Assembly: GCA_963422645.2 (NCBI GenBank)
Contig: CAXXVO010000013.1
Span: 32,001-96,000, forward strand
From: Alphaproteobacteria bacterium
GTDB taxonomy: Bacteria; Pseudomonadota; Alphaproteobacteria; UBA828
Length of the DNA: 64,000 nucleotides
Reading direction: 5' to 3'
Part shown: positions 9,258 through 31,895 of the stretch, one piece after another
Position numbering within the stretch: position 1 is the stretch's first letter
Layout: the number at the start of each line of letters is the position of its first letter
The notes under the pieces: model-generated
Told to the model about the DNA's origin: nothing
Seen by the model: the letters and a program-made list of their open reading frames with translations, nothing else
Database searches by the model: none
Made by a program: the position numbers and the translations under genes

Positions 9258-9275
9258 GGGCGCGCGTTGTCCGGC

Positions 9276-10052: not shown

Positions 10053-10105
10053 GGCTGGCCTCTCTTGCCTCTCTTATGCGGTCGTTTCGCGAAGGTCTCC
10101 CGGCA

Positions 10106-10813: not shown

Positions 10814-10848
10814 TCAACTCCCTTTCGGTTCGCGGTGAACGGGCGGGT

Positions 10849-11991: not shown

Positions 11992-12046
11992 GGCACACTC
12001 CTCGTTCCGTATTCCCCGCCGCAGCGCCGCATATTGCCGACGGTAC

Positions 12047-13969
12047 TCAACGTGCCTCCGGGGAGAGGCCGAGCTGGAGCGCAACGGGCGTTTCCTCGAC
12101 GACCAGCTCGTCGCCGTCGCGGAAACGGGTCTTCCAGAATTCGCCCGCGCCGGGGCCGGTCGGCAGACTGAGAGATCGATCCTGGGTTTCCCGCATGCGC
12201 CCGCGCAGCGCCTCGGTCTCCGCCTCGTCGACCACCAGCGTGTCCGGGTCGATCACCGCACCGAAACGCGCGCGTGCCATCTCGGCTGAGACGAGCTCGT
12301 CCCGCACCAGCTCGCGCACTGACTCCACCGGGCGCTCCAGCGCGCTGCCGTAGCCACCGCCGCCGGAGCTGATGCAGACATAGCGCTCGCCCTCGCGAAA
12401 GGCGTCGGGGTCCGGGTGCGCCTGGTAGAAGTAGCGCTTGCCGTCCGGCGTCTCCTTGTACTTGCAGCCGCCGTTGCCGGGCAGCCCGCCGAACAGGCCG
12501 AAGGGCGGATTGAGCGTCCCTTCGTACTCGAACTTCATGTAGAGCAGCCCGTAATAGGGCAGCACGACGGTCTCGCAGCCATGGCCGCCGATCCACTTCC
12601 CGGCGCCGGCGGAATCGATCAGGAACTGGTTGCTCTCGATAAAGAGCGGCTGGAGCAACTCGACCATCTCCACCGATTCGTTCTGCAGGCCGCCCAGCGC
12701 GCAGACGCATTGCGTCAGCGGCCAGCCGTCATAGCCCTTGGACCCGCCTCCGCCCGAGCCCGCGACGAAGATCGAGGCCGCAAAGGGGGTCGGCGGGTCG
12801 GTCCGGTAGTCGTCGCCCATCGAGAGCCGCTGCTGAATCCGCCCCCAGCCCGCCGGCACCCGGCCCGGCGCGGCCTGGGCCAGCGCCTTCCACGCCGCCT
12901 CGATCAGCTCGTCGCCGGGATTGGTGGTCGACCACCAGGTGCTCGACGGCCACTTGCCGAGCGCCACCGTGCCCTCGCGCGCCGAGACCCGGATATGGCG
13001 CATGCACCCCTCGTTGCGCGGAATGGTCGGGTCGATGGTGGTCAGCACCGGAATGCTGCCGTTGGCCTGCAGCGAAGCGAGCGAGGAGTTGCAGTGGCCG
13101 CCGACTTGCGGGTCGCTCTCCGAATAATCGACGTGCACCATGTCGTCCTCGATGGTGACGGTACACGCGATGCGGATGTCGTGCGTGCCCTGCCCGTCGC
13201 TGTCGATCCAGGATTCCCCCTTGTAGACGCCATCCGGGAGCGCGCGGATCTCCGCAGCCGTGCGCCGGTCCGAGTACTCGATCATCTCGGCCACCGTGGC
13301 GAGGACGCTCTCCACACCGTGGGTCTGGGTCATCTCGCGAAGCCGCGCCGCTCCGGTGCGCACCGAGCCCACCATGGCCCTGAGATCGGCCTCGAGCCAT
13401 TCGGGCAGGCGCACGTTGCGCAGGTAGAAGCGAATGATGCTGCGCACCTCCTTGCCACGCTCGAAGATGCGCACGGGCGGGATCTGGATCCCGTCCTGCC
13501 AGACGCTGGTGGACGCGTGCCCGAAGGAGGCTTCGCCCGTGTTGTTCTGATGCGCCCGGATCGAGGTCCAGAACAGGTGCCGGCCCTCGTGGAACACCGG
13601 CATGATCACCGTGAGATCGGAGTTGTGCGTCGTCCCCATGTAGGGGTCGTTGATCATGAAGATATCGCCCTCGTTGATGTCGTCGCCGAACTCGTCCACC
13701 GTTGCATCGATGTTGAGCGCGCCGCCGATCGTGTGGATCGGAAGGGCGTCGTTCTGGTAGAGCATCTGGGCCTCGGCGGTGTAAATCGAGGCCGAGTGGT
13801 CGCGCGCGATCGAGATGATGGTGCTGCGCGCGCCGCGCTGCAGGACCCGGGTCATCTCGTCGGAGGCCTGCCCGATCGCGTGCAGCAGCACGGAGAACAT
13901 GGTCGGGTCGATGCCTTCGGAAAGGCCATTCGTGCGACGACGCGGCCGCTCCTCGTGCGGCTCCTGCAT
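12047..13969 (-). CDS. Hydantoinase B/oxoprolinase family subunit (copy 1)
   Basis: Same motifs as 7338-9257; ORF open from 14002, ATG at 13969 follows GGAAGG. Confidence 0.9.
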   Translation of the reverse strand: MQEPHEERPRRRTNGLSEGIDPTMFSVLLHAIGQASDEMTRVLQRGARSTIISIARDHSASIYTAEAQMLYQNDALPIHTIGGALNIDATVDEFGDDINEGDIFMINDPYMGTTHNSDLTVIMPVFHEGRHLFWTSIRAHQNNTGEASFGHASTSVWQDGIQIPPVRIFERGKEVRSIIRFYLRNVRLPEWLEADLRAMVGSVRTGAARLREMTQTHGVESVLATVAEMIEYSDRRTAAEIRALPDGVYKGESWIDSDGQGTHDIRIACTVTIEDDMVHVDYSESDPQVGGHCNSSLASLQANGSIPVLTTIDPTIPRNEGCMRHIRVSAREGTVALGKWPSSTWWSTTNPGDELIEAAWKALAQAAPGRVPAGWGRIQQRLSMGDDYRTDPPTPFAASIFVAGSGGGGSKGYDGWPLTQCVCALGGLQNESVEMVELLQPLFIESNQFLIDSAGAGKWIGGHGCETVVLPYYGLLYMKFEYEGTLNPPFGLFGGLPGNGGCKYKETPDGKRYFYQAHPDPDAFREGERYVCISSGGGGYGSALERPVESVRELVRDELVSAEMARARFGAVIDPDTLVVDEAETEALRGRMRETQDRSLSLPTGPGAGEFWKTRFRDGDELVVEETPVALQLGLSPEAR

Positions 13970-13991
13970 TGCCTCGCCTTCCGTCAACTCG

Positions 13992-16070
13992 TTATAGGGC
14001 ATCGCCGTTCACCCGATAGTCGTAGCCTGAAAGACTGACCCGCACGGCGTGACCGGGAAAGACGGTCACGCTCGTCGTCGGTTCCTCGATCACGGCCGCA
14101 CCGCGGATGACGTGGCCCGGCTCGAGCTGCATGCCGTCGTATACCGGTATCTCCATCGCCCCGCTCTCGCCGCCGAAATAGGCGGTGCGATGGCCGCTGA
14201 GCGCGGCGGCAGGGTCGGCCGACTCGCTGGCGCTCCGCCGCGGCGTCGGCATGCTGCTGCCCACCACGGCGTTCACGCGCCAGTGCAGGAAGTTGACCCG
14301 GTCCCCTTCCATCTTGAAGGTGTAGATCCGCTCGTGCTCGTCATCGAAGGCGCGGCGGAGGTCGGCCACATCCTCGAAGCGTCCCTTCGTGAGCGACACG
14401 ATTAATTCGTGCGCCTGCCCCCAGTAGGCGGCATCGTAGAACCACTGGAACTGGACCTCCTCCGTGGAGATCGCGCTTGCCGCGAGATCGCGCAGCGCGT
14501 CCTCTTCCATCTCGGCGAAAAGCCGGTTGACGGCATCGACGTCCACCGTGTTGGTATCGGTCGTGAACGTCCTGGTGTAGTCGAAGTTCACATCGACGAC
14601 GGTCATGCCGAAGGCGCTGTAGCCGCCCGCGACACGGGGGACGAAGGCGCGGTCGATCCCGAACTCGTCCGCGAGACTCCCCACCACTACGCCGCCGGCG
14701 CCCCCGCCCGCGATGAGGATGGTGCTGCGGGGGTCGACGCCGCGCTCGATCGAGACCGCCGCCATGGCCTTGACCATCTTGAAGTTGGCGAGGCGGAAGA
14801 TGCCGGCCGCGGCATCGACGATGCCAAGCCCCAGCGGTTGGGCCACGTCGGCGTCGATGGCTTCGAGCGCCTTGTCCCGGTCGAGCTTCAGGCGGCCGCC
14901 GAGGAAGGCGTCGGGATTGACGTAGCCGAGTGCGACGAAGGCGTCGGTCACGGTCGGCCTGGTCCCGCCCAGGCCGTAACACGCCGGTCCCGGATCGGCG
15001 CCGGCGCTGTGCGGCCCCACGGCGAGCGCGCCGCCGGCATCGATGGAGGCGATGCTTCCGCCGCCCGCGCCGATCGAGATGATGTCCGTGGCCAGCGAGC
15101 CGAGGGGCATCCCGGAGATCCTGAGACTGCGCGTAAGCGTCGGCAGCCCGCCCCGGATGAGCCCCACGTCGAAGCTCGTGCCCCCCATGTCGGCGCTGAT
15201 GACGTTGATCTCGCTGCGGGGGAAGAACTCGCTCGCCACCTGCACCGCGGCGGCAGGCGCTGCGGCAGGGCCCGAACCGATGCTCCGCGCCGGGTAATGC
15301 AGGATCCTGGCGATCGGTGCGCAGCCCCCGTTGCACTGGATGATCAGGGGCTCGGCGCTAAAGCCGTGGTCGGCGAGCCAGGTGCGCAGGCGTTCGAGAT
15401 ACCCCGCGATCGGCGGCAGCGTGTAGGCGCTCAGCACCGTCGCCGAGGTGCGGTCCCATTCGCGCAGCTGGGGCAGGATGTCGGAGCTGATCACCACCGG
15501 AACGCCCGGCATTTCCTCGGCGAGGATGGCGCGCGTGCGCTGCTCGTGCGCGGGATTGACCTGCGACCAGAGGAAGGCGACCGCCACGGCGTTCACACCC
15601 AACTCGTTGAAGCGTGCCGCCGCGGCGCGCACGTCCCCTTCGTCGAGGGGCGCGACCTCCTCGCCGCGAAAGTCGATGCGCCCGCCGATGCCGAGACGGC
15701 GATGCCGGGGAATCAGCGGTTTCGGCCGCGCCATGCGGATGTTGAACGGCTCCGGCTTGGTCCCGTCCATGAACTCGAGCACGTCGCGAAATCCCCGGGT
15801 CGCGAGCAGGCCCGCGACTGGGCCGTTGCGCTGGATGATGGCGTTGGTGCCGATGGTCGTGCCGTGAACGATGCGGCTGCATTGGGAAATGAAGGCCTGC
15901 TCGGAACAGCCCAGCTCCTGGCACGCCAGCGCGATGCCGCTGAGTATGCCCTGGAGCGGGTCCTCCCGATCGCTCAGCGTCTTGAAGACCTCGATCGCGC
16001 CGTCCTCTTCATCGGCGACCGTGATGTCGGTGAACGTGCCACCGATGTCGATGCCGACCCTGTAGGTCAT
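13992..16070 (-). CDS. Hydantoinase A/oxoprolinase family ATP-binding subunit
   Basis: IDIGGTFTD, HGTTIGTN, SGPAA, DMGGTSFD, IGAGGGS, PTVTDA. Confidence 0.92.
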   Translation of the reverse strand: MTYRVGIDIGGTFTDITVADEEDGAIEVFKTLSDREDPLQGILSGIALACQELGCSEQAFISQCSRIVHGTTIGTNAIIQRNGPVAGLLATRGFRDVLEFMDGTKPEPFNIRMARPKPLIPRHRRLGIGGRIDFRGEEVAPLDEGDVRAAAARFNELGVNAVAVAFLWSQVNPAHEQRTRAILAEEMPGVPVVISSDILPQLREWDRTSATVLSAYTLPPIAGYLERLRTWLADHGFSAEPLIIQCNGGCAPIARILHYPARSIGSGPAAAPAAAVQVASEFFPRSEINVISADMGGTSFDVGLIRGGLPTLTRSLRISGMPLGSLATDIISIGAGGGSIASIDAGGALAVGPHSAGADPGPACYGLGGTRPTVTDAFVALGYVNPDAFLGGRLKLDRDKALEAIDADVAQPLGLGIVDAAAGIFRLANFKMVKAMAAVSIERGVDPRSTILIAGGGAGGVVVGSLADEFGIDRAFVPRVAGGYSAFGMTVVDVNFDYTRTFTTDTNTVDVDAVNRLFAEMEEDALRDLAASAISTEEVQFQWFYDAAYWGQAHELIVSLTKGRFEDVADLRRAFDDEHERIYTFKMEGDRVNFLHWRVNAVVGSSMPTPRRSASESADPAAALSGHRTAYFGGESGAMEIPVYDGMQLEPGHVIRGAAVIEEPTTSVTVFPGHAVRVSLSGYDYRVNGDAL

Positions 16071-16105
16071 GGCTTGCCCCGGAAAGAAAGCATCGTGTCG
16101 GTCTC

Positions 16106-17149
16106 CTAGAAGCCGCCGGCGCGGGAGCGATTCTCGGTGCGGTTCATCCACACGCTGATCGACACCGTAATCAGCAGGATGCAGCCGATGATGAAGGGCT
16201 GCCAGAAGGGCGAGACCCCGTTCAGGTTGAGGCCGTTGCGGATGACGCCGAGCAGGATGACGCCGACGACCGTGCCGAGGATGGCGCCGTGGCCGCCGCC
16301 GAGCCTCGTGCCGCCGATGACGGTCGCCGTGATGGCGTCGATTTCGAGCCCGATTCCCGTGGTGGTGAGCGCGGTGCCGGTGCGCGCGGTGAACAGGAGG
16401 CCCGAGAGGCCGGCGAGGCCGCCCATCAGTGCGTAGCAGGTGATCACGACACGGCTGACCGGCACGCCGGAGAGTCGTGCAGCCTCCTCATTGCCGCCGA
16501 TGGCGTAGACCCAGCGCCCGAATTTCGCGTAGCGCAGGATGATCGACCCCATCACGACCGCGCCGATAAAGAAGAATCCGGCGACGGGGAAGCCACCGCC
16601 CACGCGGCCGAGCGCGAGCGTGGTGATCCACATCGCATCGCCTTCGGCGCGATGGATGGTGCCTTCGCTGGAGATCAGCACAAGGCCGCGCACCAGGCTC
16701 GCCATGGCGAGCGTCGCAATCAGCGGGTTGATGCCGATGCGGCTGATCAGGGTGCCGTTGAAGGCACCGAGGAGGGCGCCGGCGCCGATGCATGCGAGGC
16801 AGCCGAGCGCCAGGAACAGAGGCTCGCCGGTGCCGAACACGAGCACCGCGACGAGGCCGGTCACGGCGGCGATCGCGCCGATCGACAGGTCGAACCCGCC
16901 CAGGATCATGACCACCGTCATGCCGACGGCCGCCACGCCCACCATCGACGACTGGGCCAGGATGTTCGAGAGGTTCAGCGGGTTGCGAAAGGTCTCGTTG
17001 GTGGCGAGCAGGATGATCGCCGGCAGAAGCAGCGCGATCATGAAACCGTAGCGCCCGAGGAACGCCACCAAGGGCTTCAAGTGCACGGTTCCCCGCGCGC
17101 CGGACTCGGCGGGCTGACTATCCTGCGGGCTGCTCACCGCCGGCTCCAA
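16106..17149 (-). CDS. Sugar-type ABC permease (RbsC family)
   Basis: GGFDLSIG, YAIGGNEEAARLSG, VIGGTRLGGG. Confidence 0.9.
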   Translation of the reverse strand: MEPAVSSPQDSQPAESGARGTVHLKPLVAFLGRYGFMIALLLPAIILLATNETFRNPLNLSNILAQSSMVGVAAVGMTVVMILGGFDLSIGAIAAVTGLVAVLVFGTGEPLFLALGCLACIGAGALLGAFNGTLISRIGINPLIATLAMASLVRGLVLISSEGTIHRAEGDAMWITTLALGRVGGGFPVAGFFFIGAVVMGSIILRYAKFGRWVYAIGGNEEAARLSGVPVSRVVITCYALMGGLAGLSGLLFTARTGTALTTTGIGLEIDAITATVIGGTRLGGGHGAILGTVVGVILLGVIRNGLNLNGVSPFWQPFIIGCILLITVSISVWMNRTENRSRAGGF

Positions 17150-17291
17150 GACCTCGTGCGAATTGTGCGAAGGCCGCTGCTAGCGCATCGGTCGTGAGAA
17201 CGCCGTGCTCGATTGGGCAGAGAATGCGTGTGGGCAGCCGCCTGCCCGGCGACTGCCCACAATTCTGCCATTTGATATCCGGGACGAGACG

Positions 17292-18260
17292 CTAGAAGCC
17301 GCGCCCCTCGCACTCGGCGTAGTTGGCCTGCGTGCAGTTGAAGATCGGCGGGACCTGGGCAAAGTCCGGCAGCATGCTGAAGTCGCCGGCAGCCTGCATG
17401 GCGACCAGGCTGTCGACCACGAGCGCGCCCATGATCAGCGGATCCTGGTAGACGGCGCCGTACATCTTGCCGGCCCCGATGGCTTGCTCTTCGGCCTGGC
17501 ACAGGTCGATGGCGACGAACATGATCTCCGTGCGCCCCAGCCTCTGGGCCCAATCCAGCGACGGCGGAACCATGCAGTTCCCCATGCTGTTGACCAGGGT
17601 GACGCTGCCCGGAACCGGGAAGCGCTGGAGCATATCCTGGAAGCCGGTCAGCGCCTTGTCGGGCAGCCAGTCGGCGGTGACGTCGACCCAGTCGTGCTCG
17701 ACGCCGGAGGCCTCGAGCACTTCGCTCATGCCCTGCATGCGGCGCCGGTCGGGGCTGCCGCCGGCGGTGCCGCGGAACATGACGATGCGCTTCTCGCCCT
17801 CGACGGTCGCGAGCGCCTCAAGCATGAGGCGGGCCGACAGGCGCCCGTACTCGACATCGTCCACGCCGACGTAGGGAACGCCCTCGATCTCACCCAGCGC
17901 GCCCACCACCGGGATACCGGCATCGAGCGCTTCCTGCACGGCGGGAAGGACGCCTGCGATATCGATCGGCGCGATGGCGATCGCATCGACGCCCTGCACG
18001 ATGAACTCGCGAACGTTCTCGACCTGGACCGAGGCATCCCACTTGGGATCGCTGACGATGAGGTTGACGTTGGCCTTCTCGGCGGCGTCGCGCATGCCCT
18101 TGACCAGCGGCACCGCGAACGGCGTGGTCGAGACATCCCAAACGGTCACGCCCACGGTGAATTGATCCTCGCTTCGTGCGTCGTCCGGCGCAGCCGCGAC
18201 ACCGAAAACCAGTGCCGCAACACCCAGTGCGGCCGCGATATGCGAAACCTTCATTTTCAT
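17292..18260 (-). CDS. Sugar-type ABC substrate-binding protein (RbsB-like)
   Basis: Signal peptide; QGVDAIAIAP, DAGIPVV, QDP motifs. Confidence 0.85.
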   Translation of the reverse strand: MKMKVSHIAAALGVAALVFGVAAAPDDARSEDQFTVGVTVWDVSTTPFAVPLVKGMRDAAEKANVNLIVSDPKWDASVQVENVREFIVQGVDAIAIAPIDIAGVLPAVQEALDAGIPVVGALGEIEGVPYVGVDDVEYGRLSARLMLEALATVEGEKRIVMFRGTAGGSPDRRRMQGMSEVLEASGVEHDWVDVTADWLPDKALTGFQDMLQRFPVPGSVTLVNSMGNCMVPPSLDWAQRLGRTEIMFVAIDLCQAEEQAIGAGKMYGAVYQDPLIMGALVVDSLVAMQAAGDFSMLPDFAQVPPIFNCTQANYAECEGRGF

Positions 18261-18449
18261 CTCTCTCCCCTTATGGTGCTCTTGACCGACTGCGTCGCGA
18301 TGGCGCGGAACGGCCGCAAAAGCCTACAGGGACGCTCCGCCCGCGAGCAATGACTTTCTCCCCGAAGCGGCGGCTTGATCGATCGGTCTCATGGTAGATA
18401 CCGCGTCGCAGGCAGGTCCACGATCGGCGCGATAGGCTATCGAAGTGGC

Positions 18450-19910
18450 CTAATACGGGGGGTCACACTTGCGCGCCGAACAAGATATCAAGGCCGGTCG
18501 GCGGGGTCGAAGGCTCCCGCTGGGCCGCCGTGTAAGCCCCTGATCGACGAGCAGGGCGCGCGCGCCGCTCTCGTCCACCGTCGAAAGCAGACCGGCGGCT
18601 GCAAGCACATAGCGGCGGTCGAGAGCAATGGTGGGCGCCCGTGGCGTCAGCGAGCCTTGCGTCTGGCGGTTGAGCCCGCCACGCAGCACCGCCTCGCCTG
18701 CCGCTTGGCGGCCGAGCACGCCGCCGGTGCCGATCACGAGGGGGACATCCCGGAGATCGGCGCCCCGCTGTTCGAAATCCGCTCCCTGACCGGGGACGTA
18801 GACGGTCTTGAGCGTGCCGCAGTGGCGCTGGAGCGCATGGGTCACACAGGCGGTCGCCAGCGCCTGGTCGACACGATCCTCTTCCGGGTTGTCGGGCAGG
18901 AAGTCCGGCTCCCGGCGGCGGCGTGCGCAGGCGTTGAGAAGCTCATCGGGCGAAAGTGCGGCATCACCACTTTCTGCCTCGAGCCAGTCGGCATCCGCTT
19001 CCAGAACGCCGAGCGCACTCCAGCGCATGCCGAGATCGCCTTCCACTGTGCGGCGGAGTGGGAGCGCCGGCAGGCCGGCCCTGCGAATGCCGACGGGCGC
19101 GGGCTTGAGCGCGACAGCCGCGTGGACGTCGGTCGTGGCGCCGCCGAGGTCGATCACGACAACATCGGCCGGCGGCGCCCCGTCGGCACCTCGAGCCAGC
19201 AGCCGCGTCGCCTGCAGCACGGCCTCGGGCGTCGGCATGATGACGGCCTCGTGGAACTCTTCGGCGCGGCTCAGGCCCTTGCCGCGAATCACATGGCGGA
19301 TGAACTCGTCGTGGATGGCGGCCCGCGCCGGCTCGATGTCGAGCCGGCCAATGGCCGGCAGCACGTTGGCGACCACCGTGACCCGCTCGCGCGGCGCCAC
19401 CATTTCGGCAACGGCCGCAGCGACATCGCGGTTGCAGGCCACGACGATGCGGCTTTCGATCCGGGCTCGGGAAAGCGCCTCGGCATTCTCCAGTACCTGC
19501 TCGCGCTGCCCACCGTCGGTCCCGCCGGAGAATAGGACGATTTCGGGCCGCGCCTCTTCGAGAGCGGCAATGGCCCGCGCGCCGAGCCGGCCCGATAAAG
19601 TGAGCTCGATGCGCGCGCCGGCGTTGAGCGCGGCCTGGCGCGCCGCCTGCGCCGTGTAATCGGGCACGAGGCCGATCGCAGCGACCCGGAGGCCTCCGCC
19701 AGCGCTCGATGCCGCAAGTCGGCGAACGATCCTGAGCCCGCCGGGCGCTTGGCCGAGAGCACGGTCGAGGGCATCCCTGTAGCCCTCCATCACGTCCGTC
19801 TCGACGGTCGTGGGTGCCTGGGCGCTAGCCAGCAGGCGCCCCGTCCCGGCTTCGGTAATCGTCAGCTTTGTGAAGGTGCTTCCGAAATCGACGAGAGCAA
19901 TCGCATTCAC
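18450..19910 (-). CDS. Glutamate mutase L (GlmL/MutL)-like ATP-dependent reactivating factor
   Basis: DFGSTFTK, SSAGGGL, AALNAGA, GGTDGG, MPTP, DLGGATTDVH, RTVEGDLGMR; GTG start overlaps the stop of the upstream B12 gene. Confidence 0.85.
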   Translation of the reverse strand: MNAIALVDFGSTFTKLTITEAGTGRLLASAQAPTTVETDVMEGYRDALDRALGQAPGGLRIVRRLAASSAGGGLRVAAIGLVPDYTAQAARQAALNAGARIELTLSGRLGARAIAALEEARPEIVLFSGGTDGGQREQVLENAEALSRARIESRIVVACNRDVAAAVAEMVAPRERVTVVANVLPAIGRLDIEPARAAIHDEFIRHVIRGKGLSRAEEFHEAVIMPTPEAVLQATRLLARGADGAPPADVVVIDLGGATTDVHAAVALKPAPVGIRRAGLPALPLRRTVEGDLGMRWSALGVLEADADWLEAESGDAALSPDELLNACARRRREPDFLPDNPEEDRVDQALATACVTHALQRHCGTLKTVYVPGQGADFEQRGADLRDVPLVIGTGGVLGRQAAGEAVLRGGLNRQTQGSLTPRAPTIALDRRYVLAAAGLLSTVDESGARALLVDQGLTRRPSGSLRPRRPALISCSARKCDPPY

Positions 19911-21676
19911 GGCTTCGCGCCGCACTCGGCTTCCATCGTCACCAGCAGGTCGTCGATCGAGCCCGGCGTGCGGATGCCGATATTGCCCAGGTCCTGGCGC
20001 ACATCCACCGGCACATTCGAGCCCTCTATATCCTCGTTCAGAACACCGCCCATGAAGACCGGCGCGTCCAGCCGTGCGTCCCGCATCTCGTCGATCAGCT
20101 TGGTGCCGTAGCTGCGGGCGACGCCGTTGTGGGTGGTGATGACGACGGCGTCGGCAGCGGTCTCCACCGCGACCTTCACGATGTCCTCGGGATCGCGATT
20201 GATACCGCAGTCGATGACGTTGCTGCCGGCGGCATCGAGGGTGGAGGTGAGCAGGAACTTCGCGAATTCATGGACGTCGGTGCTTGCCACCACGACGTTC
20301 TTCGCCTTCAAGCCATCGACCGGGCCGCGCTGGGCGAGGCCCGCGAGGAGCGTCTGCCGCTGTTTCATAGTCTCGCGGACCAGGTCGGTCTCCAGGATCG
20401 GCTTGCGGCCGCGCAAGTAGCCGTCGTCGCGCTCGCCGGCGCCGAACAGCGTCTCGCAGGTCTCCGGGCCGAGTCGCTTGATTAGCAGCAGGACGGGTGC
20501 GGGATCGCGCGCATCGACGCCCATCTCGGCCATCGCATCCAGCGCGTTCCGGAAGAAGCGCCTGCCGCCCTCCACCAGCTCGTCGCGAAGCGCTTCGATT
20601 TTGCCCCAGTCGATGTAGGGCTCCATCATCGGCAGGTAGTCCTCGCACTTGCGGCTCACCGTCTGGACGGTCGCGACCTCCTGCCAGGTGGGGATGCGCT
20701 CGACCTCGGTCACCGGCACGGCGATCGGTGCGCCGCCGAGGCGATAACGCAGGTCCGTCATCTTCATCATCATCAAGTCGTTTACGAGCACGGCCATGTT
20801 GCCGTCGAAATCGCGCGAATAGCCGATCGTGTCTCCCTGGATGAACGAGGTCGGCACGCGATCCGGGTTCACGGCGTCGAGTGCCAGCGTCACCGCCGAC
20901 TTGATGACCGGGTTCTGGGTGAGGCCGCCCCAGGAGGGCGAATAGGCGGCGCCGATCAGCTCCTCGGAGACGTAGCGCTCCAACATCGCCCAGCCGACGT
21001 AGCTTGCGTAGTCGTGGAAGACGCCGGGGTAGCCGTCCTCAAGGTAGGAATCGAACACCACCCCCTGGCCCTTGAGCGACGCCAGCACGCCGCCAGCTTT
21101 CAGCACCGCCATCAGTTGCGCGGTCTCGTCGTCCCAGTAGGGCCAGCGCCAGGAATACTGGCTGAGCACACCAATGCAGGTGATGCCTACCTGGAGCGCG
21201 TTCACCACGTTGTCGACGGAGCCCGGCCCGCCGATCATGTTGTCGGCCGCCTCCGGCTGGATCGGCACCGTGTTGGTCATCTCCCACCAGTGCTGATCGG
21301 TCCAGAGCACGGGCCCGGTCTCCTGCGGGGCAGAGGCACGGAGCTCCTTGGGCAGCCCCATGCGCCGCTCGGCCAGCAGGTTGAAACGATCCGGCGGGCG
21401 CACGCCGCGCGAGAGGGCGTCTTCGTAGATCAGCCCCATGGCCTCGCGCGTGTCGTCCCAGGTGGCGAGGCCGATGTTCATGCAGGTGCAGGGGATGCCC
21501 TGGGCGCGCGCTTTCTCGCGCCATTCCCGCTCCGAGCCGACGCCCTTCTCTTCGCAATAGAGCGAGGTCGCCCGCTCGATCGTGAGCCCGAGCGCGCGCC
21601 CTTCCGCCACCGCCTCGCGGCCGTCAGGCAGGTCGGCAGGAATCAGCGCAGCAAGGTCGATCGCTTCGAGTGCCAT
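19907..21676 (-). CDS. Cobalamin-dependent enzyme with C-terminal B12-binding domain, function unknown
   Basis: C-terminal STDVHEFAK...ITTHNG...FMGGVL resembling the DxHxxG-SxL-GG signature; ~450 aa N-terminal domain not assignable by eye. Confidence 0.75.
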   Translation of the reverse strand: MALEAIDLAALIPADLPDGREAVAEGRALGLTIERATSLYCEEKGVGSEREWREKARAQGIPCTCMNIGLATWDDTREAMGLIYEDALSRGVRPPDRFNLLAERRMGLPKELRASAPQETGPVLWTDQHWWEMTNTVPIQPEAADNMIGGPGSVDNVVNALQVGITCIGVLSQYSWRWPYWDDETAQLMAVLKAGGVLASLKGQGVVFDSYLEDGYPGVFHDYASYVGWAMLERYVSEELIGAAYSPSWGGLTQNPVIKSAVTLALDAVNPDRVPTSFIQGDTIGYSRDFDGNMAVLVNDLMMMKMTDLRYRLGGAPIAVPVTEVERIPTWQEVATVQTVSRKCEDYLPMMEPYIDWGKIEALRDELVEGGRRFFRNALDAMAEMGVDARDPAPVLLLIKRLGPETCETLFGAGERDDGYLRGRKPILETDLVRETMKQRQTLLAGLAQRGPVDGLKAKNVVVASTDVHEFAKFLLTSTLDAAGSNVIDCGINRDPEDIVKVAVETAADAVVITTHNGVARSYGTKLIDEMRDARLDAPVFMGGVLNEDIEGSNVPVDVRQDLGNIGIRTPGSIDDLLVTMEAECGAKP

Positions 21677-21694
21677 CCGTCTCGCTCCTCGGCC

Positions 21695-22498
21695 CTACCC
21701 CGCCAGCGTCCAGCCGCCGTCGGCGAGCACCATCTGGCCGGTGATGTAGCCCGCGCCGTCTGAGGCGAGGAAGAGCACGGTCTCCGCGATCTCCTGCGGC
21801 ATGCCCATGCGCTTCAGCTGCGTCATATTGACGGCTTCCTCGACGTGCTCCGCCGGGATTCCCCAATCGGCGTCCCAATTCGCCTGGATCGGCCCGGGCG
21901 AGACGGCGTTGACCCGGATGTGCGGCGCGAGGTCGCGTGCGAGCGAGGCGGTGAAGCCGCGCACGGCGCCCTTCGCCGCGCAGTAGGAGACCGCAACGGA
22001 GTTCACCATGTTCTCCTGGTTCACGCCGTTGCCGTAGGAACCCGCGAAGTTGACGATGGCGCCGCCGCCCCGCGCTTCCATGTGCGGCACGACGGCGCGG
22101 CACATGAGGAACGTGCCCTTCACGTCGACCGCAAAGAGCGCATCCCACGCTTGCGGGTCCGTATCGGCGAAGCGCACGGCGTCCGCCGCGTCGATCCGGC
22201 CCGCCGCGTTGATCAGCACGTCGATGCCGCCGTAGCGCGCCACCGCGTCATCGACGAAGGCCTGCACCGAGCGCTCGTCGGTGATGTCCAGATGGGCCGC
22301 GTGCGCCGTGCCGCCGGCGGCCGTGATCTCGTCCACGGCCTCGGCCGCCGCATCCGCGCCGCTGCGGTAGGCCAGGGCAACGCTCGCCCCCTCACGGGCG
22401 AGTGCACGGGCGCAGGCGCCCCCCAGCGCGCCGCTCGCGCCGGTCACGATGGCGACGCGGCCTGCGAATCTGTGGCCGTCGTTCCAGCGAGCGGTCAC
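21695..22498 (-). CDS. Short-chain dehydrogenase/reductase
   Basis: TGASGALG, INAAG, YCAAK, ITGQ..ADGG; GTG at 22498 after GGAGG (the longer ORF extension is a shadow). Confidence 0.9.
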   Translation of the reverse strand: MTARWNDGHRFAGRVAIVTGASGALGGACARALAREGASVALAYRSGADAAAEAVDEITAAGGTAHAAHLDITDERSVQAFVDDAVARYGGIDVLINAAGRIDAADAVRFADTDPQAWDALFAVDVKGTFLMCRAVVPHMEARGGGAIVNFAGSYGNGVNQENMVNSVAVSYCAAKGAVRGFTASLARDLAPHIRVNAVSPGPIQANWDADWGIPAEHVEEAVNMTQLKRMGMPQEIAETVLFLASDGAGYITGQMVLADGGWTLAG

Positions 22499-22648
22499 GG
22501 AACCTCCCCCTCCTGGCTCTGTTGCGCGGAAGTGTAGAGGCCACCGTCTGAGGCGTAAACGGCGCCGCGCCCGACAACAGTGGCACGAATTCAGGCCGCG
22601 CGAGTTCTGGCGTATGCTCCGCCTGCCCACGAAGAAGCACGTCTCGCC

Positions 22649-23773
22649 ATGGCCGCCATCCTCGAAATCCAGAATGTCACGAAGACCTTCCGCGGCGGCG
22701 TGCGCGCCGTGGACGACGTGACGCTCGCGGTCGAGGAAGGCGAGTTCCTGACCATTCTCGGGCCTTCCGGCTGCGGCAAGACCACCACGCTCCGCATGGT
22801 GGGGGGCTTCGAGTATCCCGATGCAGGGCGCATCGTGCTCGACGGGCGCGACGTGACCGACCTCCCGCCATACCGGCGGCCGGTCAACATGATGTTTCAG
22901 GACTTCGCGCTCTTTCCCCACCTCACGGTGGCGCAGAACATCGGCTATGGCCTCGCCATCGCCGGCATGAAAAAGCGCGAAGCGGCGCGCGAAGTGGAGG
23001 AGGCGCTCGGCACGATCGAGCTGCTCGACAAGGCCGATCGACGGCCAGCGGAGCTTTCCATCGGCCAGAAGCAGCGCGTGGCCCTCGCCCGCGCCCTGAT
23101 CCGGCGGCCGAAGATACTGTTGCTCGACGAGCCGCTGTCGGCGCTCGACGCCAAGCTCCGTGAATCGATGCAGGTGGAACTCAAGCGCCTGCACGACCAG
23201 ATCGGCCTCACCTTCATGATGGTCACCCACGATCAGACCGAGGCCCTGGTGATGTCCGACCGGATCGTGGTGATGGATACCGGGCGCATCGTGCAGGCGG
23301 GCACACCGACGGACCTCTACGACCGACCCGAGACACCCTACGTCGCGAACTTCCTCGGCACCTCCAACATGGTTGCCGGCACCGTGACCGGGACGGCGGA
23401 CGGCACCGCGCAAGTGAGTTGCGGCGCTGCGGATATCAGCGTCGCGCTCCAGGGCGCCGCGCCGGCGGTGGGTGCCCGGGTCACATTATCGATCCGGCCC
23501 GAGAAGGTGGTGCTCAGCGGCGGAGCCGAGCTGCCGGCCGGGTTCAACAGCCTCTCCGGCCAGCTTCGCGATGTCTTCTTCCACGGCGATTCCGTCAGGC
23601 TCGCCATCGATATCGGCGCCGAGCGGCTGCTCATCGTGCACCGCCAGCTCGAAACCGGGCTCCAACAGATGCCGCTGCCGCCGGTGGGCGGCACGCTCTC
23701 CCTCGGCTTCGATCCGGCGAGCGTGATCCTCTTCGCAGGCTCCGGCGACGCATCGGCGGACAGCGCCGAATGA
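22649..23773 (+). CDS. Polyamine-type ABC ATP-binding protein (PotA-like)
   Basis: GPSGCGKTT, LSIGQKQR, LLLDEP, C-terminal TOBE-like region. Confidence 0.9.
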   Translation: MAAILEIQNVTKTFRGGVRAVDDVTLAVEEGEFLTILGPSGCGKTTTLRMVGGFEYPDAGRIVLDGRDVTDLPPYRRPVNMMFQDFALFPHLTVAQNIGYGLAIAGMKKREAAREVEEALGTIELLDKADRRPAELSIGQKQRVALARALIRRPKILLLDEPLSALDAKLRESMQVELKRLHDQIGLTFMMVTHDQTEALVMSDRIVVMDTGRIVQAGTPTDLYDRPETPYVANFLGTSNMVAGTVTGTADGTAQVSCGAADISVALQGAAPAVGARVTLSIRPEKVVLSGGAELPAGFNSLSGQLRDVFFHGDSVRLAIDIGAERLLIVHRQLETGLQQMPLPPVGGTLSLGFDPASVILFAGSGDASADSAE

Positions 23774-24506
23774 GGTACGCCCGGCGTCGCCGGCTCGAAT
23801 TCGCCGCCCTCGTCTCGGCACCTGTGATCTGGTGGGTCGTGGTCCTGTTGGTGCCTTACATTATCATGCTGATGATCAGCTTCTACCGGACGCAGTTTCC
23901 CTTCCACGTCCCCGATTTACAGGTTGCCAACTATCTGAAAATATTCGCCGAATCGCAGTACGTCACGATCCTTCTGCGCAGCCTGAAGATCTCGATCTTC
24001 GTCTCCATCGTGACCTTCGCGCTGGCCTACCCGCTGACCTATTTCCTGGTCTTCAAGGTGCGCTCGCCACGCGTCAGGACGATCATCTACGTGGCCACTA
24101 TCGTCCCGCTCTGGGTCTCCTACCTGCTGCGCGTTTACACCTGGAAAATCGTGCTCGGCACCGAGGGGATCCTGAACACCTTCCTGATCTGGATCGGCGT
24201 GGTGAACGAGCCGATCGAGGTGCTCATCTACAACCAGTTCGCCATGGTGATCACGATGGCGTACATCTTCACGCCCTTCATGGTGATGCCGATCTACGCG
24301 ACGCTGGAGAAGATCCCGCGCAGCCTGATCGAGGGCTCCAAGGACCTGGGCGTCGGTAATATCGGCACCTTCCTGCGCATTACGCTGCCGCTCTCGGTGC
24401 CGGGCATTCTGGTGGGCTTCACCTTCACCTTCTGCTTCTCGTTCGGCGACTTCATCTCGCCGCGATTGGTGGGCGGGCCCTACTCCAACATGATCTCCAA
24501 CGTGAT
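23770..24506 (+). pseudogene. PotB-like ABC permease, 3'-truncated by the mobile element
   Basis: PLWVSYLLR, IEGSKDLG..ITLPLS, GDFISPRLVGG; homology stops at NMISNVI exactly at the TGT end (24507); last TM helix and potC/potD absent. Confidence 0.8.
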
Positions 24507-24651
24507 TGTAGACGGACGAAAGTCGTTGTGAATCGGGTCAAGGGGTGGAATCAGGCGGAATCGGGCGGAAGGTGGCGGAATCTCAAGGGGATGCGGGGCG
24601 GCACGGTGGCGGTGCGGCGGCTGGCGTGCGGACGGAAGTCTTTGCGAATCG
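24507..24651 (+). repeat. Left end: terminal repeat plus spaced internal copy (putative transposase sites)
   Basis: CGGACG(A/G)AAGTC(G/T)TTG(T/C)GAATCG at 24513-24535 and 24629-24651. Confidence 0.8.
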
Positions 24652-24926
24652 GGCCGTGCAGAGGCCGTGAATTGGCTGGAAACGGCAATTTTCGGGGCGT
24701 TTCAGGGGTCTTGCGACGGCGGCAAATCGGGTCGGTTTCGGGGTATCGGATTCGGCTGGAAAATCCGGTGCGTGGCGCCCGTCCCGCGAGGCTGGCGGCG
24801 GCCCGCGCCGGGGCGCTGAATCGGCTTGAGATGGCGTGCGGCGGCGCGTAGGGTGAGCGTGGCGTCGGAAGCAGCAGTCCTCTCATGCCTTCGGGCGAGC
24901 GCGGGGTTTGCGACCCGCCCGGCGCC

Positions 24927-25664
24927 TCACTTCCCATCCCTCCTGATCGGCCCGAAGCGTCGCCTTGTGACATCGAGGTCAGCGGCCTTCGACCTGTGCA
25001 GGCTCACGATGTAGGCCTCGTCGCCACCTGCGGCCGACTTGACGACGGCCTTCCACAGGCGCCCGTCCTCTTCGAGGAAGCCCTGCGCGAAACGGCCGTT
25101 GTCCTCCACGAACATCTCCCCTTGATCGAGGATGCGCTGGAGGCGGGCGTAGTCTGCGGGTTCGAGATCGGGGTGTCGCCTGGCCTGCTTTGCGGCGGTT
25201 TCTGCGGAGAGGCGGGCGGTTCGGGAGCGTGCGCCGATGGCGGCCATGACCGGGCCTCCGAGCACGGCCGCGGGCCAGTCGGCGTCGGACCGGCCTTCGA
25301 GGTGGCGGCGGAAGAGCGCGCCGTTCCAGGGTTGGCCTATGGCGGCGCGTGCGAGGTCGGGGGGCGCGTCGTCGATCTTCTCGATCAGGCGGTTTGCGCT
25401 GTCGCGGCCCGGCCGGGCGCGGCCGGCGTTGTGCTGGAAGCCGGGATCGATGCCGGCGGGGACCTGGTGGATGCGGCCGGTGCGGCGGTTCTTCCAGGGC
25501 CTGGTGCGCCCGGAGCCGGGCGGCGGACCCTCGGACACCTTGTATCCGTAGCGTTCGAGGTCGTCGTCTCCGAGCTGCTGGACGATGCAGCGGCACTTCC
25601 ATCCGTTGGGCGGGTAGTGGGTCTTCCAGAAGGGGTGATCGACGGGGAGCACGGTGCCGTGCCA
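24927..25664 (-). pseudogene. 5'-truncated phage MuF/SPP1 gp7-like minor head protein with C-terminal PBECR-like nuclease domain
   Basis: WHGTVLPVDHPFWKTHYPPNGWKCRC, VPAGIDPGF; C-terminal KQARRHPDL..DY..AVVK..E.YIVSLHR; N-terminus replaced at 25665 by the inner element end. Confidence 0.75.
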
Positions 25665-25765
25665 TGTGAGCGTGCGCCCAGCATTTGATGGTGCGGTTTT
25701 CGGATTATTTGATGTTCGTGATGCGGCGCTTGGTTGATCTGCGAGAGCGGTGAGTGGCCTGGCTT

Positions 25766-26635
25766 TCATCGAGACCGCAGGAGCATCTCGTTCCAGTCCT
25801 TGGCGTGTCGTGGGCGCAACCTTTTCACCCTTGGATCGTTGAGCACGAGATGCTCGGCGGCAGTGTCGCCGGCGCTGTCTGCGTCGTAGGCACAGACGAT
25901 GCGACGTGGCTTCCACTCCTTGATCCAGGGCGGGACCGAGCTGGCGATGCCGGCGGTTGAGGCGACGACGGCGCCGTTCTCGCGCGTCCCCTCGACGCGC
26001 AGGCTTCGTGCAGAGATGGCGTCGACGGCGCTCTCGGTGAGGATGACGAGGGCGGGCTGGTTTCGGTCGCAGTGGAGCCAGAAGCCGCCACGCGCCTTGC
26101 GCGATCCCGGGGCCATGCCCCTGAAGCGTTTTGTTCCGGGCTGCGGCGCGGTGCCGAGGATCTCGGCGCCGGTCGTGTGCCCGCTGGCGTTTCGGCAGAT
26201 GAAGACGGCGTTGATCCTGTCATCGGCGTAGAGGAGGCCTCGGCCGTGGCAGGCTTCGAGCACGTCGGTGCCGATAGCGCGTTGGCGGATGAGGGCGTCC
26301 CGGACCCTGGGCCAGGCGCGGGGACTGGGCCTTGGCAGCCGCAGGCGTCGCGGGGCGGCTGGGATGGTGGTGATCTCCCTCCGCCCCTCATGGCTTCCGA
26401 GGAAGCGGAGGGCTTCCGGGAAGCGGCATCCCGTCGCATGGATGACGAGGTCGATGGCGCCACCCCCTCCCGTGCCGCGCAGGTGATCGAAGAACTTCTC
26501 GCCGTTGATGCTGATGACCGAGCCCCCGCGCTTGAAGCGCGCCCGGTCGGTCGGGTCTCTGCGGTAGCCGAGGGCGGCGGCGACCCGGTCGAGGGGGATG
26601 TTGCGGCAGGTGGCCAGGGGATCGCCGCCGCTCAT
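25766..26635 (-). CDS. DUF3991/Toprim-domain primase-like protein
   Basis: KFFDH..GGGGAIDLV N-terminus; Toprim LTESAVDAIS and AYDADSAG; KDWNE. Confidence 0.8.
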   Translation of the reverse strand: MSGGDPLATCRNIPLDRVAAALGYRRDPTDRARFKRGGSVISINGEKFFDHLRGTGGGGAIDLVIHATGCRFPEALRFLGSHEGRREITTIPAAPRRLRLPRPSPRAWPRVRDALIRQRAIGTDVLEACHGRGLLYADDRINAVFICRNASGHTTGAEILGTAPQPGTKRFRGMAPGSRKARGGFWLHCDRNQPALVILTESAVDAISARSLRVEGTRENGAVVASTAGIASSVPPWIKEWKPRRIVCAYDADSAGDTAAEHLVLNDPRVKRLRPRHAKDWNEMLLRSR

Positions 26636-26676
26636 TGCCGGGTCCCGGCGAAGGTCTGCTTGGAAGGGAGGCTGAC

Positions 26677-26737
26677 GGCGTTCCCGTTCCTGTACCCTTC
26701 AACGCTTAAGAGTTCCGGGAACGGGAACGGGAACGCC
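26677..26737. repeat. 14-bp perfect inverted repeat with GGGAAC iterons (putative replication origin)
   Basis: GGCGTTCCCGTTCC (26677-26690) / GGAACGGGAACGCC (26724-26737); GGGAAC x3 at 26717-26734; lies between helicase and primase genes. Confidence 0.65.
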
Positions 26738-27736
26738 TCATCCCGCACTTCCGTTGATGGCGGCAGGGGATTGCGGCTCCCGGTGCGCCTCGGCGGCTGC
26801 GAGGCGATAGCCACCCCTGGGCGCCCGTTCGATGCGCCCCTCCCTGGTGAGGCTCTCGATGGCGGCAACGACGGTGGCGTTGCGGGCAGCGGCGCGTGAG
26901 CGGATCTGGGCTTTCGAGAGCGGCTTTTCGGCCTGCTCGATCGCCTTGAAGACGCGCTGCTCGACGGTGGCGGGCTCGTGCCTGTCTTCATCTGCCGCGT
27001 CCTGGTGCAGACGGAAGGCCGGCCCATGTCCGCCGTCGACGAGTTCCAGCTCGATGTCGTTGAGGCCCCGGGCGTCGCGCTGCTCGACCGTCATGACGAT
27101 CTTCTTGTCGCGCCGGCGCAGGTACAGATTTGAGTCACCCCAAGCGTGCAGCTCGCTGCTCCCGCGCAGGGCCTGCCCCGGCCGGGTGCCGCCGCTCTTG
27201 CGGGCGTGGTGGACGAGGAGGACGGCGGTTTCGAAGCGGCGCTGCAGTTCGCGCAGGAAGCCGAGGATGGGGGCGATCTCTGCGACGGCGTTCTCGTCGA
27301 CGCTGTGCAGGCGGACCAGGGGATCGAGGATCAGGAGGCGCGGTTCGATGCGCTCCACGGTCTGCTGCAGGCGTTGACGGTCGCCGGGCCGGTCGAGACG
27401 CAGGGTGGGCACGTCGATGACGGCGATGTCGAGTTCGTCGAAGGGGGTGGCGGCGGCGCGGGCGATCCCCTGCAGACGCTTGCGCACCCTGTGGCCGGCG
27501 TCCTCGGCGGCGAAGAGCAGCACGGTGCCGCTTGCGCTGGGGCGGTAGTGGCGCAGGCATGGGACGCCGGTGGCCACGGCGACGGCGAGATCGAGCGCGA
27601 GCAGGGATTTGCCGCACTTGGGCTCGCCGCCGACGATGCCCACGGCCTGCTCGGCCCACAGCGTGTCCACCATCCACTGTTGCGCCCGGGGGCGATCCTC
27701 GAGCTGCATCGGCGCCCGTGTCGGGAAGCCCTTCAC
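26738..27736 (-). CDS. AAA_25 / RepA-like RecA-fold helicase with C-terminal wHTH-like region
   Basis: GGEPKCGKS, FAAED, LLILDPL, LVHHARK, LRGSS; GTG at 27736 overlaps the ExeA stop (GTGA). Confidence 0.82.
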   Translation of the reverse strand: MKGFPTRAPMQLEDRPRAQQWMVDTLWAEQAVGIVGGEPKCGKSLLALDLAVAVATGVPCLRHYRPSASGTVLLFAAEDAGHRVRKRLQGIARAAATPFDELDIAVIDVPTLRLDRPGDRQRLQQTVERIEPRLLILDPLVRLHSVDENAVAEIAPILGFLRELQRRFETAVLLVHHARKSGGTRPGQALRGSSELHAWGDSNLYLRRRDKKIVMTVEQRDARGLNDIELELVDGGHGPAFRLHQDAADEDRHEPATVEQRVFKAIEQAEKPLSKAQIRSRAAARNATVVAAIESLTREGRIERAPRGGYRLAAAEAHREPQSPAAINGSAG

Positions 27737-28566
27737 CGCCGTGCCCTCTTCGGCTTGGCGGGCTCGCCCAGGATCTCCATGAAGAGCTTCTCGTCGAGAA
27801 CCTCGCGGTTCTTCTCGGCGCCGGCGGCGAGCAGCATGTCGCCCATGACGGTAAGCGCCCTGGGGTTGCCGCCGGCGTGGGTGACCAGGGTGTCCTTGAG
27901 CTCTGCGCTCATGAGGCCCGGATTGCCGGCCTGCTCGACCAGATGGTCGAGCAGGGCCGCGAGGTCGCCGGCGTCTGCCTGGGTCATGACCAGGCGCTGG
28001 CGCAGGCGCGAGGCGATGGGCTGCAAGTCGGGCTGGCGGAGCCTGTCGATCAGGCGGCTGTCGCCGGCGAAGACGACCGAGAGGATGGCGCGCGAGTCGA
28101 AGTCGGTGGACGCCAGCAGGCGGATCTCGGAGATCACCGAGGGCAGCAGCTCCTGGGCCTCGTCGATGAGCACCACGGGCCGCATGCGGGTGTCGTCGAC
28201 ATGGGTGAGCCATCGCTCGCGCAGGTTTTTGAAGCTGGCCCAGCGGTTGTTGTACATCAGGTCGACGCCGAACATCCCGCCGATCTCGCGGTAGAAGTCG
28301 GACAGCCTGGAAGAGGGGTGGGTGATGGCACAGACCCTGAGCCCGTCCGAGCGGCCGAGGCGGTCGGCGAGCACGCGCAACGCCACGCTCTTTCCGGTGC
28401 CGGGCTCGCCGGCGATCAACGCGAAGCCGCCCTGGCGCACAAGATGATGCTCGATTCTGAGGCAGAAGCTGTCGACGGCGGGGCTCACCATGAGGCTGTC
28501 GACCGGAAGGTCGGTGGCGAAGGGGTTCCATTTGAGCCCGTAGAAGGTGAGCAGCTCGCGGTTCAT
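27733..28566 (-). CDS. ExeA-family AAA+ ATPase (transposition helper)
   Basis: FYGLKWNPF, GEPGTGKS, VLIDEAQ, GGNPRAL; directly downstream of the transposase. Confidence 0.88.
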   Translation of the reverse strand: MNRELLTFYGLKWNPFATDLPVDSLMVSPAVDSFCLRIEHHLVRQGGFALIAGEPGTGKSVALRVLADRLGRSDGLRVCAITHPSSRLSDFYREIGGMFGVDLMYNNRWASFKNLRERWLTHVDDTRMRPVVLIDEAQELLPSVISEIRLLASTDFDSRAILSVVFAGDSRLIDRLRQPDLQPIASRLRQRLVMTQADAGDLAALLDHLVEQAGNPGLMSAELKDTLVTHAGGNPRALTVMGDMLLAAGAEKNREVLDEKLFMEILGEPAKPKRARR

Positions 28567-30039: not shown

Positions 30040-30088
30040 TCCGGCATCCCTCCCTCGCCGCATCGGAGAGATGCCCATGTAGAACGCC

Positions 30089-30505: not shown

Positions 30506-30507
30506 TC

Positions 30508-30843: not shown

Positions 30844-30963
30844 AACCCCCACGCACCGCCCGTGCACGGGCCCCGAAACCCCCGCGCAGCGCTCCTTCAT
30901 GGCCCATGCACAGGCCGGTTTTTCCAGCCCGGTTCAGCCCCGAAAACCAGCCGATTTTCCAGG

Positions 30964-31834: not shown

Positions 31835-31895
31835 GTCGCACCTCCGGGGCTGAACTGCGTCCAAGTCCTCGCCGGGCCCGACCGCGCCGCCGGGG

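Follow-up and report, generated by a model that had tools for sequence, protein, structure and literature searches.

Only about a dozen isomerase reactions that depend on adenosylcobalamin (AdoCbl) have been described, and additions to this list are rare. The described systems closest to the locus treated here are (i) glutamate mutase, GlmE/GlmS with GlmL (MutE/MutS/MutL), (ii) the lysine 5,6- and ornithine 4,5-aminomutases, KamDE and OraSE, which act on amines and are followed in their pathways by a dehydrogenase, (iii) methylmalonyl-CoA mutase (MCM) with MeaB, and (iv) 2-methyleneglutarate mutase of Eubacterium barkeri, presumably a single chain of about 614 amino acids (aa) whose DxHxxG B12 domain is C-terminal and whose gene lies near a GlmL-like one. 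The locus lies in a 64,000-nucleotide (nt) stretch of an alphaproteobacterial genome (contig CAXXVO010000013.1; hereafter the window) and comprises the genes of an atypical short-chain dehydrogenase/reductase (SDR), a 589-aa cobalamin (B12) protein, and a MutL/GlmL-family ATPase. The B12 protein, a predicted GlmE/GlmS-like fusion, probably belongs to the base-off/His-on class of AdoCbl-dependent enzymes and would act as a radical isomerase, either a mutase or an eliminase, together with a MutL helper and the atypical SDR.

The likeness to glutamate mutase extends to the barrel fold, the B12 domain, the His-on DxH motif, and the GlmL-family neighbor. Glutamate mutase, however, is built of two chains as opposed to one here, whereas the window protein has no PF06368 match, stands beside an SDR, and appears, in a weak alignment, to have had its substrate residues replaced. 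MCM is likewise one chain with a barrel and a C-terminal B12 domain, but it is served by a G-protein chaperone in place of an actin-fold MutL, and the true MCM of this genome is encoded elsewhere. KamDE and OraSE are strongly alike in the barrel, and OraE also joins its barrel to a B12 domain; the window family, in contrast, lacks both the conserved lysine for pyridoxal phosphate (PLP) and the aminomutase Pfam domains. A single chain, which the original prediction had set against the two-subunit systems, is nothing exceptional, as MCM alpha and OraE share this arrangement. The name of 2-methyleneglutarate mutase is absent from all lists of relatives, and the nicotinate-fermentation genes of its cluster are not found among the annotated neighbors of the loci surveyed. 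The reactivases of diol and glycerol dehydratase (DdrAB, GdrAB) would resemble the MutL partner by analogy only, in the ATP-dependent freeing of an enzyme from damaged cofactor.

The module and the transporter genes next to it are arranged as follows.

18450..19910, minus strand: predicted actin-fold ATPase of the MutL/GlmL family, 486 aa, GTG start at 19910 (PF13941 and TIGR01319)
19907..21676, minus strand: B12 enzyme, 589 aa (open reading frame and Pfam PF02310)
21695..22498, minus strand: atypical SDR, about 267 aa, first gene of the three-gene module (Pfam adh_short_C2, 2.2e-56)
22580..24507, plus strand: PotA/PotB-like, polyamine-type ATP-binding cassette (ABC) transporter genes, divergent from the module, the permease shortened (profile scores below cut-off)

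Domain architecture and predicted fold

The sole Pfam match of the 589-aa protein is PF02310 (B12-binding) at residues 461–546 (E 2.8e-12; 47 bits, cut-off 32.1), and the cobalamin motif reads D467-V-H469-E-F-A472. The C-terminal B12 domain with DVHEFA described in the original prediction is thus confirmed by the reading frame and the domain match. In a 40-sequence family alignment, D467 is conserved at 95% and H469 at 97%, with the consensus DVHExG, and the best PDB sequence matches of the domain are GlmS chains. Residues 1–440 of the single protein match nothing in Pfam, NCBIfam, or PDB sequences (the last searched also with a 40-sequence profile), and Pfam scans of 40 family members give nothing over the N-terminal 440 residues. 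The same 40 members show no match to PF06368 (Met_asp_mut_E) at E up to 1, a model on which genuine GlmE proteins score 204–474 bits, none to MM_CoA_mutase, and none to PF09043 or PF16554 (Lys-AminoMut_A, OAM_dimer; 40/40). No B12-binding_2 cap domain is reported in the Pfam scans of the window protein and the 40 members. A full-length match to a characterized enzyme, which would have spoken against the original prediction, was found in none of Pfam, NCBIfam, PDB sequences, or source names. The protein itself is absent from the ESM Atlas, where a 73%-identical homolog (P0030) leads only to unannotated B12-binding clusters.

The near-invariant polar residues of the barrel are mainly acidic (D145, D214, D222, E233, E324, D388, and E408), R113 being the sole arginine; E324 is conserved at 97% and P329 at 95%. 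No conserved lysine is present across the 40-sequence alignment, the best candidates being K/R mixtures at positions 259 and 400.

An AlphaFold2 model built with the 40-sequence alignment (pLDDT 93.4, pTM 0.92) predicts a TIM barrel at residues ~16–439, a helical linker, and a Rossmann B12 domain at residues ~454–589. The model was compared with known structures by Foldseek and then by VIA-align. Foldseek places AdoCbl isomerases at the top, and from rank 18 onward methionine synthase entries are mixed in among them. By VIA-align, model residues 16–439 superimpose on GlmE (6h9e_B) with Z 28.6 and a root-mean-square deviation (rmsd) of 3.4 over 366 residues; KamD of lysine 5,6-aminomutase follows with Z 26.1, OraE with Z about 21, and MCM with Z about 20. 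The C-terminal domain superimposes on GlmS (1i9c_A) with Z 17.1 and rmsd 2.3 over 128 of 137 residues at 21% identity, and for MCM alpha and OraE the superposition spans the barrel as well as the B12 domain, whole-chain alignments of MCM reaching Z about 19–20. Methyltransferase entries reach Z of about 15 with large rmsd against the barrel, as compared to 20–28.6 for the isomerases. As modeled, the 589-aa protein is a predicted fusion of a GlmE-like barrel to a GlmS-like B12 domain. The TIM barrel that the original prediction had named as supporting evidence is predicted by the model for residues 16–439, closest to GlmE. The statement that no GlmS/GlmE, OraS/OraE, or MCM motifs can be recognized holds at the sequence level but not at the level of the predicted fold, where GlmE/GlmS features emerge. 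Since the structures closest to the barrel, GlmE, KamD, OraE, and MCM, are all AdoCbl isomerases, the comparison argues for a radical isomerase.

The MutL/GlmL and SDR partners

The ATPase matches PF13941 (E 8e-137, 457 bits, cut-off 27) and the NCBIfam model glmL_fam, TIGR01319 (344 bits; cut-off 204). On NF040745, the equivalog model for GlmL as accessory protein of methylaspartate mutase, it reaches 439.5 bits, under the cut-off of 475, and on NF040744, “GlmL-related ornithine degradation protein”, 295 bits, also under cut-off. The motifs DFGST and DxGGATTD, which we take to be the phosphate-binding motifs of actin-fold ATPases, are invariant in 24 MutL homologs. Neither MutL nor the 24-sequence MutL profile has a sequence match among PDB chains. 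The TGA stop of the B12 gene is overlapped by the MutL GTG as GTGA (junction letters CCGTGAATG); this junction, together with the two family matches, bears out the stop/start overlap with a GlmL-family gene that had been predicted, and MutL appears from the sequence to be translationally coupled to the B12 gene. Starting at GTG 19910, the protein begins MNAI-ALVDFG, which fits the consensus MxxxALADFG of the 24 homologs better than does the longer start at GTG 19925. The last ~25 MutL residues (after ~460; window 18450–18530, minus strand) are absent from relatives, and the point at which synteny with the closest relatives is lost would seem to be the extreme 3′ end of the gene.

The original prediction did not mention the minus-strand location of the B12 and MutL genes, nor did it note the SDR gene located 18 nt upstream, which is followed by a GAGGAG ribosome site before the ATG of the B12 gene. 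The predicted SDR start is a Val codon at 22498, taken as GTG. Two inserts, GRIDxxDxVRF and GSYGNGxxQxNxVNS, are specific to this SDR subfamily. Arg39 is invariant, an arginine at this position being of the kind typical of NADP(H) binding, and the enzyme is probably NADP(H)-linked. The tyrosine of the YxxxK motif is Tyr in 12 of 24 orthologs and Phe in the other 12, with Lys170 present in 24/24; Tyr149, which lies inside a family-specific insert, is kept in 22 of the 24. By its conservation, the SDR appears to be the third member of the module, and this odd enzyme may be an integral partner of the B12 protein as opposed to an ordinary pathway step.

A promoter and terminator scan gave no signal above that of shuffled sequence, and an Rfam search of window positions 9000–27000 at E up to 0.1 found no riboswitch or other RNA. 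Contigs of the RNA library X20 are 90–97% identical to parts of the B12 and MutL genes; they are relatives present in an RNA library and not proof of transcription at this locus.

Gene linkage and family distribution

An ortholog scan limited to one genome per species yielded 41 loci at 63–98% identity. All are metagenome-assembled and belong to Alphaproteobacteria, Acidiferrobacteraceae, Solirubrobacterales, Acidimicrobiales, and Streptosporangiaceae, the exceptions by label being L033 (a Chloroflexota fragment) and L004 (“uncultured bacterium”). MutL lies directly downstream of the B12 gene in 38 of the 41, and the other three loci end in the B12 gene or at most 262 nt beyond it. In the 29 loci with both genes called, the B12 stop and the MutL start overlap by up to 74 nt or are separated by up to 27 nt, and the 4-nt overlap is seen in 14 of them; the 74-nt value reflects longest-reading-frame MutL starts, which are possibly placed too far upstream. 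In 28 of the 41 loci, the gene immediately upstream is an SDR ortholog (identity of 59% or more), and eight further loci have one in another position; of the five without one, three have no upstream sequence. This genome encodes one member of the B12 family, one MutL, and no GlmE.

A 31%-identical subfamily from anaerobes was found at 17 metagenome loci, with MutL directly upstream in 14 and no flanking sequence in the other three. MutL is upstream in this subfamily and downstream in the orthologs, so the pairing survives a change of gene order. The same 17 loci carry an SDR in eight cases and a barrel-only paralog in seven. This 427-aa paralog, which precedes SDR-MutL-B12 (L056:1766-3049; also L049–L052, L058, and L059), has neither a B12 domain nor the PVTExxRIP motif that holds E324, and is reminiscent of the inactive beta subunit of MCM. 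MutL pairing is not universal in the wider superfamily: the linkage to glmL that the original prediction had named as a check holds for the orthologs and the anaerobe subfamily but not for more distant relatives. Neighbors of the members without MutL are oxidoreductases (P5CR-like, Asp-DH-like) and amino-acid-type transporters. Near one such distant member, a 453-aa protein (L067:13618-14979) weakly matches Hsp70/MreB (actin-fold) and could be a different helper ATPase.

A word-indexed search returned 687 relatives; the top 120 share a length of ~590 aa and an identity of 69% or higher. Their source names read “cobalamin-dependent protein” or, in a loose usage, “methylmalonyl-CoA mutase cobalamin-binding subunit”, and a copy on a Shinella plasmid is likewise annotated “cobalamin-dependent protein” in RefSeq. 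When representatives of clusters at 50% identity were searched exhaustively with HMMER, 472 matched, with full-length relatives down to about 26% identity. No functional name was attached to the twenty distant clusters looked up, nor did one appear in a search from a Clostridia member. Distant members occur in the cultured carriers Ruegeria sp. HKCCD4884, Shinella spp., and Anaerovorax odorimutans. In a quick, unrooted tree of 35 orthologs, one change of phylum label suffices. A 72%-identical protein labeled Methanosarcina sp. (P0093) and the 97%-identical fragment in a Chloroflexota bin (L033) probably owe their labels to binning errors and not to true hosts. Apparent SDR+B12 (P0005) and B12+MutL (P0006) fusions were set aside as frameshift artefacts, the partner aligning over its first 176 and 149 residues only; no genuine fusion exists among the longer proteins searched.

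Literature searches, whose reach ended short of subscription journals and supplements, turned up no paper on the B12-enzyme family. The “novel B12-dependent family” of Zhang and Gladyshev (PMC2667541) is a different one, its B12 domain being N-terminal.

One alphaproteobacterial metagenome-assembled genome (L010:10001-17877) carries three tandem paralogs of the B12 gene, 68–71% identical to the window protein, the first two of them separated by an AMP-binding enzyme gene and the third followed by the only MutL of the array; upstream are two arginase-family genes and homocysteine S-methyltransferase genes. Elsewhere in the phylum of the window genome, two true glutamate mutases (L046, L047) are single-chain GlmS–GlmE proteins with the B12 domain first. 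Neither of these loci has a MutL, and one adjoins an AMP-binding enzyme and a PLP decarboxylase. One genome, G024, holds a GlmS–GlmE fusion together with a distant member of the window B12 family.

Genomic context and substrate clues

Only the SDR/B12/MutL triad is constant across loci, and the surroundings vary. At proteobacterial loci, a PotD/PotF/YdcS-like binding protein precedes the SDR, with PotA/B/C-like genes nearby. In the window, the transporter ATPase scores 362 bits as PhnT2 and 353 bits as PotA, and the permease 168 bits as PotB-like, all under cut-off. Actinobacterial loci have a peptide/opine-type binding protein with permeases and a TetR regulator, and a class-III HemL-like aminotransferase follows MutL (16 loci by clustering). 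A second actinobacterial layout combines an APC permease, this aminotransferase, and an aldehyde dehydrogenase similar to betaine-aldehyde and aminobutyraldehyde dehydrogenases. An anaerobe locus features two sodium:neurotransmitter-family symporters, a 2-oxoacid:ferredoxin oxidoreductase, and an HpaB/AbfD-family protein. Anaerovorax odorimutans, reportedly a putrescine fermenter to go by the title of a paper, carries two distant family members. No methyltransferase or reductive-activase partner is conserved beside the B12 gene in the loci surveyed.

The amine-type neighbors and the mostly acidic residues of the barrel together point, softly, to a small cationic, amine-bearing substrate. We tentatively propose such a compound, be it a diamine, a polyamine derivative, an amino alcohol, or a non-alpha amino acid.

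In this genome, the transporter beside the module is broken. The PotB-like permease matches residues 1–246 of its 289-aa ortholog at L041 and then stops, and the PotC-like, PhyH-like, and PotD-like genes of the closest relative were not found anywhere in the whole genome. The flanking gene of that relative resumes ~66 kb further along the contig (C14). No tRNA was found at 23000–33000. The genes that follow the permease break are listed below.

25766-26635: Toprim/DUF3991 gene
26738-28846: AAA_25 gene
28612-30135: rve integrase gene

From window position 24507 on, what looks like a large island insertion accompanied by a deletion has evidently displaced the transporter of the module.

On the other side, past MutL, a block on the minus strand (10849-18260) encodes a ribose-type binding protein and permease, caprolactamase-like HydA and HydB (621 and 307 bits), and a homolog of the 3-hydroxy-D-aspartate aldolase BhcC (250 bits), these last three all under cut-off. 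The HydA/HydB (hydantoinase/caprolactamase-like), BhcC-like, and ribose transporter genes were rejected as pathway partners, as they recur in 0 of the 41 loci; the block is probably a separate unit of lactam or amino-acid catabolism.

The genome encodes PduO-type and CobA-type adenosyltransferases and, away from the module, an MCM, which makes a supply of AdoCbl plausible. Methylaspartate ammonia-lyase (PF07476) was not found in this 99.6%-complete genome.

Proposed mechanism and alternative assignments

From the observed domains and gene linkage, we infer the cofactor form, the radical chemistry, the role of the chaperone, and the class of substrate as follows. The substrate would be imported by the adjoining polyamine-type or peptide-type transporters. 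The substrate and the adenosyl group would sit in the predicted GlmE-like TIM barrel, and the corrin on the GlmS-like C-terminal domain, anchored by His469. In favor of the adenosyl contact, E324 and P329 fall, in a collinear but weak hhalign alignment, on the Glu and Pro that are invariant in the GlmE motif KTxxEAxKIP, whose glutamate contacts the adenosyl ribose in GlmE; the barrel-only paralog without a B12 domain lacks this motif as well. Homolysis of the Co–C bond would then yield a 5′-deoxyadenosyl radical that abstracts a hydrogen from the substrate, which would undergo a 1,2-shift before the hydrogen is returned. MutL/GlmL may, by analogy, use ATP to release damaged cob(II)alamin or hydroxocobalamin or to load fresh AdoCbl. 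The SDR would act on the substrate of the B12 enzyme or on its carbonyl product, and in Actinobacteria the HemL-like aminotransferase and the amino-aldehyde-type dehydrogenase may handle the product further.

Several points weigh against this reading. The glycine of DxHxxG is replaced by alanine in the window protein. Comparison by hhalign with three true GlmE proteins, themselves GlmS–GlmE fusions of reversed domain order, detects the B12 domain alone, the likeness of the barrel to GlmE being purely structural, and a barrel-only hhalign comparison with GlmE, collinear over 351 columns, is weak (probability 5.8%). Among 401 sampled genomes of the phylum, the family occurs in four and a MutL above cut-off in one, namely this genome; the three other carriers, all alphaproteobacterial, and the Shinella plasmid have members 31–35% identical with no MutL nearby. 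The reactivase role of GlmL/MutL is attributed by analogy: the one source found to describe MutL as a chaperone (PMC4682846) refers for this to studies of diol dehydratase. The role of the SDR is uncertain, as its canonical tyrosine is Phe in half of the orthologs. Rfam scans of seven related loci found a single tRNA and nothing else, so regulatory RNA gives no clue to a ligand. With the neighboring transporter cut short and the corresponding binding protein absent, the module may be decaying or reliant on other uptake. The substrate assignment is soft because the types of transporter differ between phyla. All in all, the fold, the B12 motif, and the gene linkage support the uncharacterized AdoCbl mutase or eliminase with a dedicated reactivase that was originally predicted, and we hold this description to be likely.

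It is quite unlikely that the protein is a fused form of a known GlmE-type mutase, i.e., glutamate mutase, which turns glutamate into 3-methylaspartate, or 2-methyleneglutarate mutase, with GlmL as in the known operons. GlmE (Z 28.6) and GlmS (Z 17.1) are the best structural matches, and fused GlmS–GlmE proteins exist (L046, L047), albeit in the opposite domain order; 2-methyleneglutarate mutase presumably shares the single chain, the C-terminal B12 domain, and the GlmL-like neighbor. The partner is of the GlmL family, yet its 439.5 bits against the GlmL equivalog model remain under the cut-off of 475. PF06368 matches 0 of the 40 members, and NCBIfam detects the B12 domain only. In the weak hhalign alignment (5.8%), the invariant Arg and Glu columns of GlmE, which we take to be the glutamate-binding substrate claw and Glu171, meet variable residues, Gly169, or the neighborhood of Asp145, and are apparently not kept, the sole exception being the glutamate of KTxxEAxKIP (E324). 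Moreover, the genome lacks methylaspartate ammonia-lyase, neither known pathway has an SDR beside the mutase as is conserved here, and no source names any member as either enzyme.

The structural match to KamD, second only to GlmE (Z 26.1), and then to OraE (Z about 21) raises the question whether the protein might be an aminomutase that uses both PLP and AdoCbl, like the lysine-5,6 and ornithine-4,5 enzymes. It would then move a terminal amino group, and the SDR would oxidize the new secondary amine or alcohol in the manner of Kdd or Ord in the lysine and ornithine pathways. The match of MutL to NF040744 at 295 bits, under cut-off, is in line with this, as are the amine-suggesting neighbors and the P5CR-like and Asp-DH-like dehydrogenases beside distant members. 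Known aminomutases, however, hold PLP on a lysine of the Rossmann domain, and no lysine is conserved in the 40 sequences; a Lys-AminoMut_A or OAM_dimer match is also absent in 40/40 members, which makes an aminomutase improbable.

A corrinoid methyl-transfer protein with its own barrel, or a B12 carrier or sensor, in either case no radical enzyme, is most improbable: a barrel joined to a Rossmann B12 domain is also found in MetH modules and MtaBC-type systems, which are among the weaker matches, but methyltransferase barrels score far lower (Z about 15 versus 20–28.6), the Pfam scans give no B12-binding_2 cap match, no methyltransferase or reductive-activase partner is conserved, and the conserved partner MutL belongs to a family that otherwise accompanies AdoCbl mutases.

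Implications

The probable radical-isomerase module described here combines a confidently predicted, mutase-like fold with a substrate domain that has no sequence match in Pfam, NCBIfam, or PDB, in a family 63–98% identical across two phyla and represented by hundreds of sequences from the environment. It is possible, if speculative, that the triad carries out an undescribed, PLP-free AdoCbl radical rearrangement or elimination on a polyamine- or amino-alcohol-type compound in uncultured Alphaproteobacteria, Acidiferrobacteraceae, and Actinomycetota. The wider superfamily, which extends to 25% identity and includes anaerobes of gut and sediment, would then hold several further B12 reactions. 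The three-gene module is a ready experimental handle for joint expression and a second, genetically simple system for testing the function of MutL/GlmL, so far assigned by analogy. Identification of the substrate would add a B12-dependent step to the turnover of amines and osmolytes in soil and marine bacteria.

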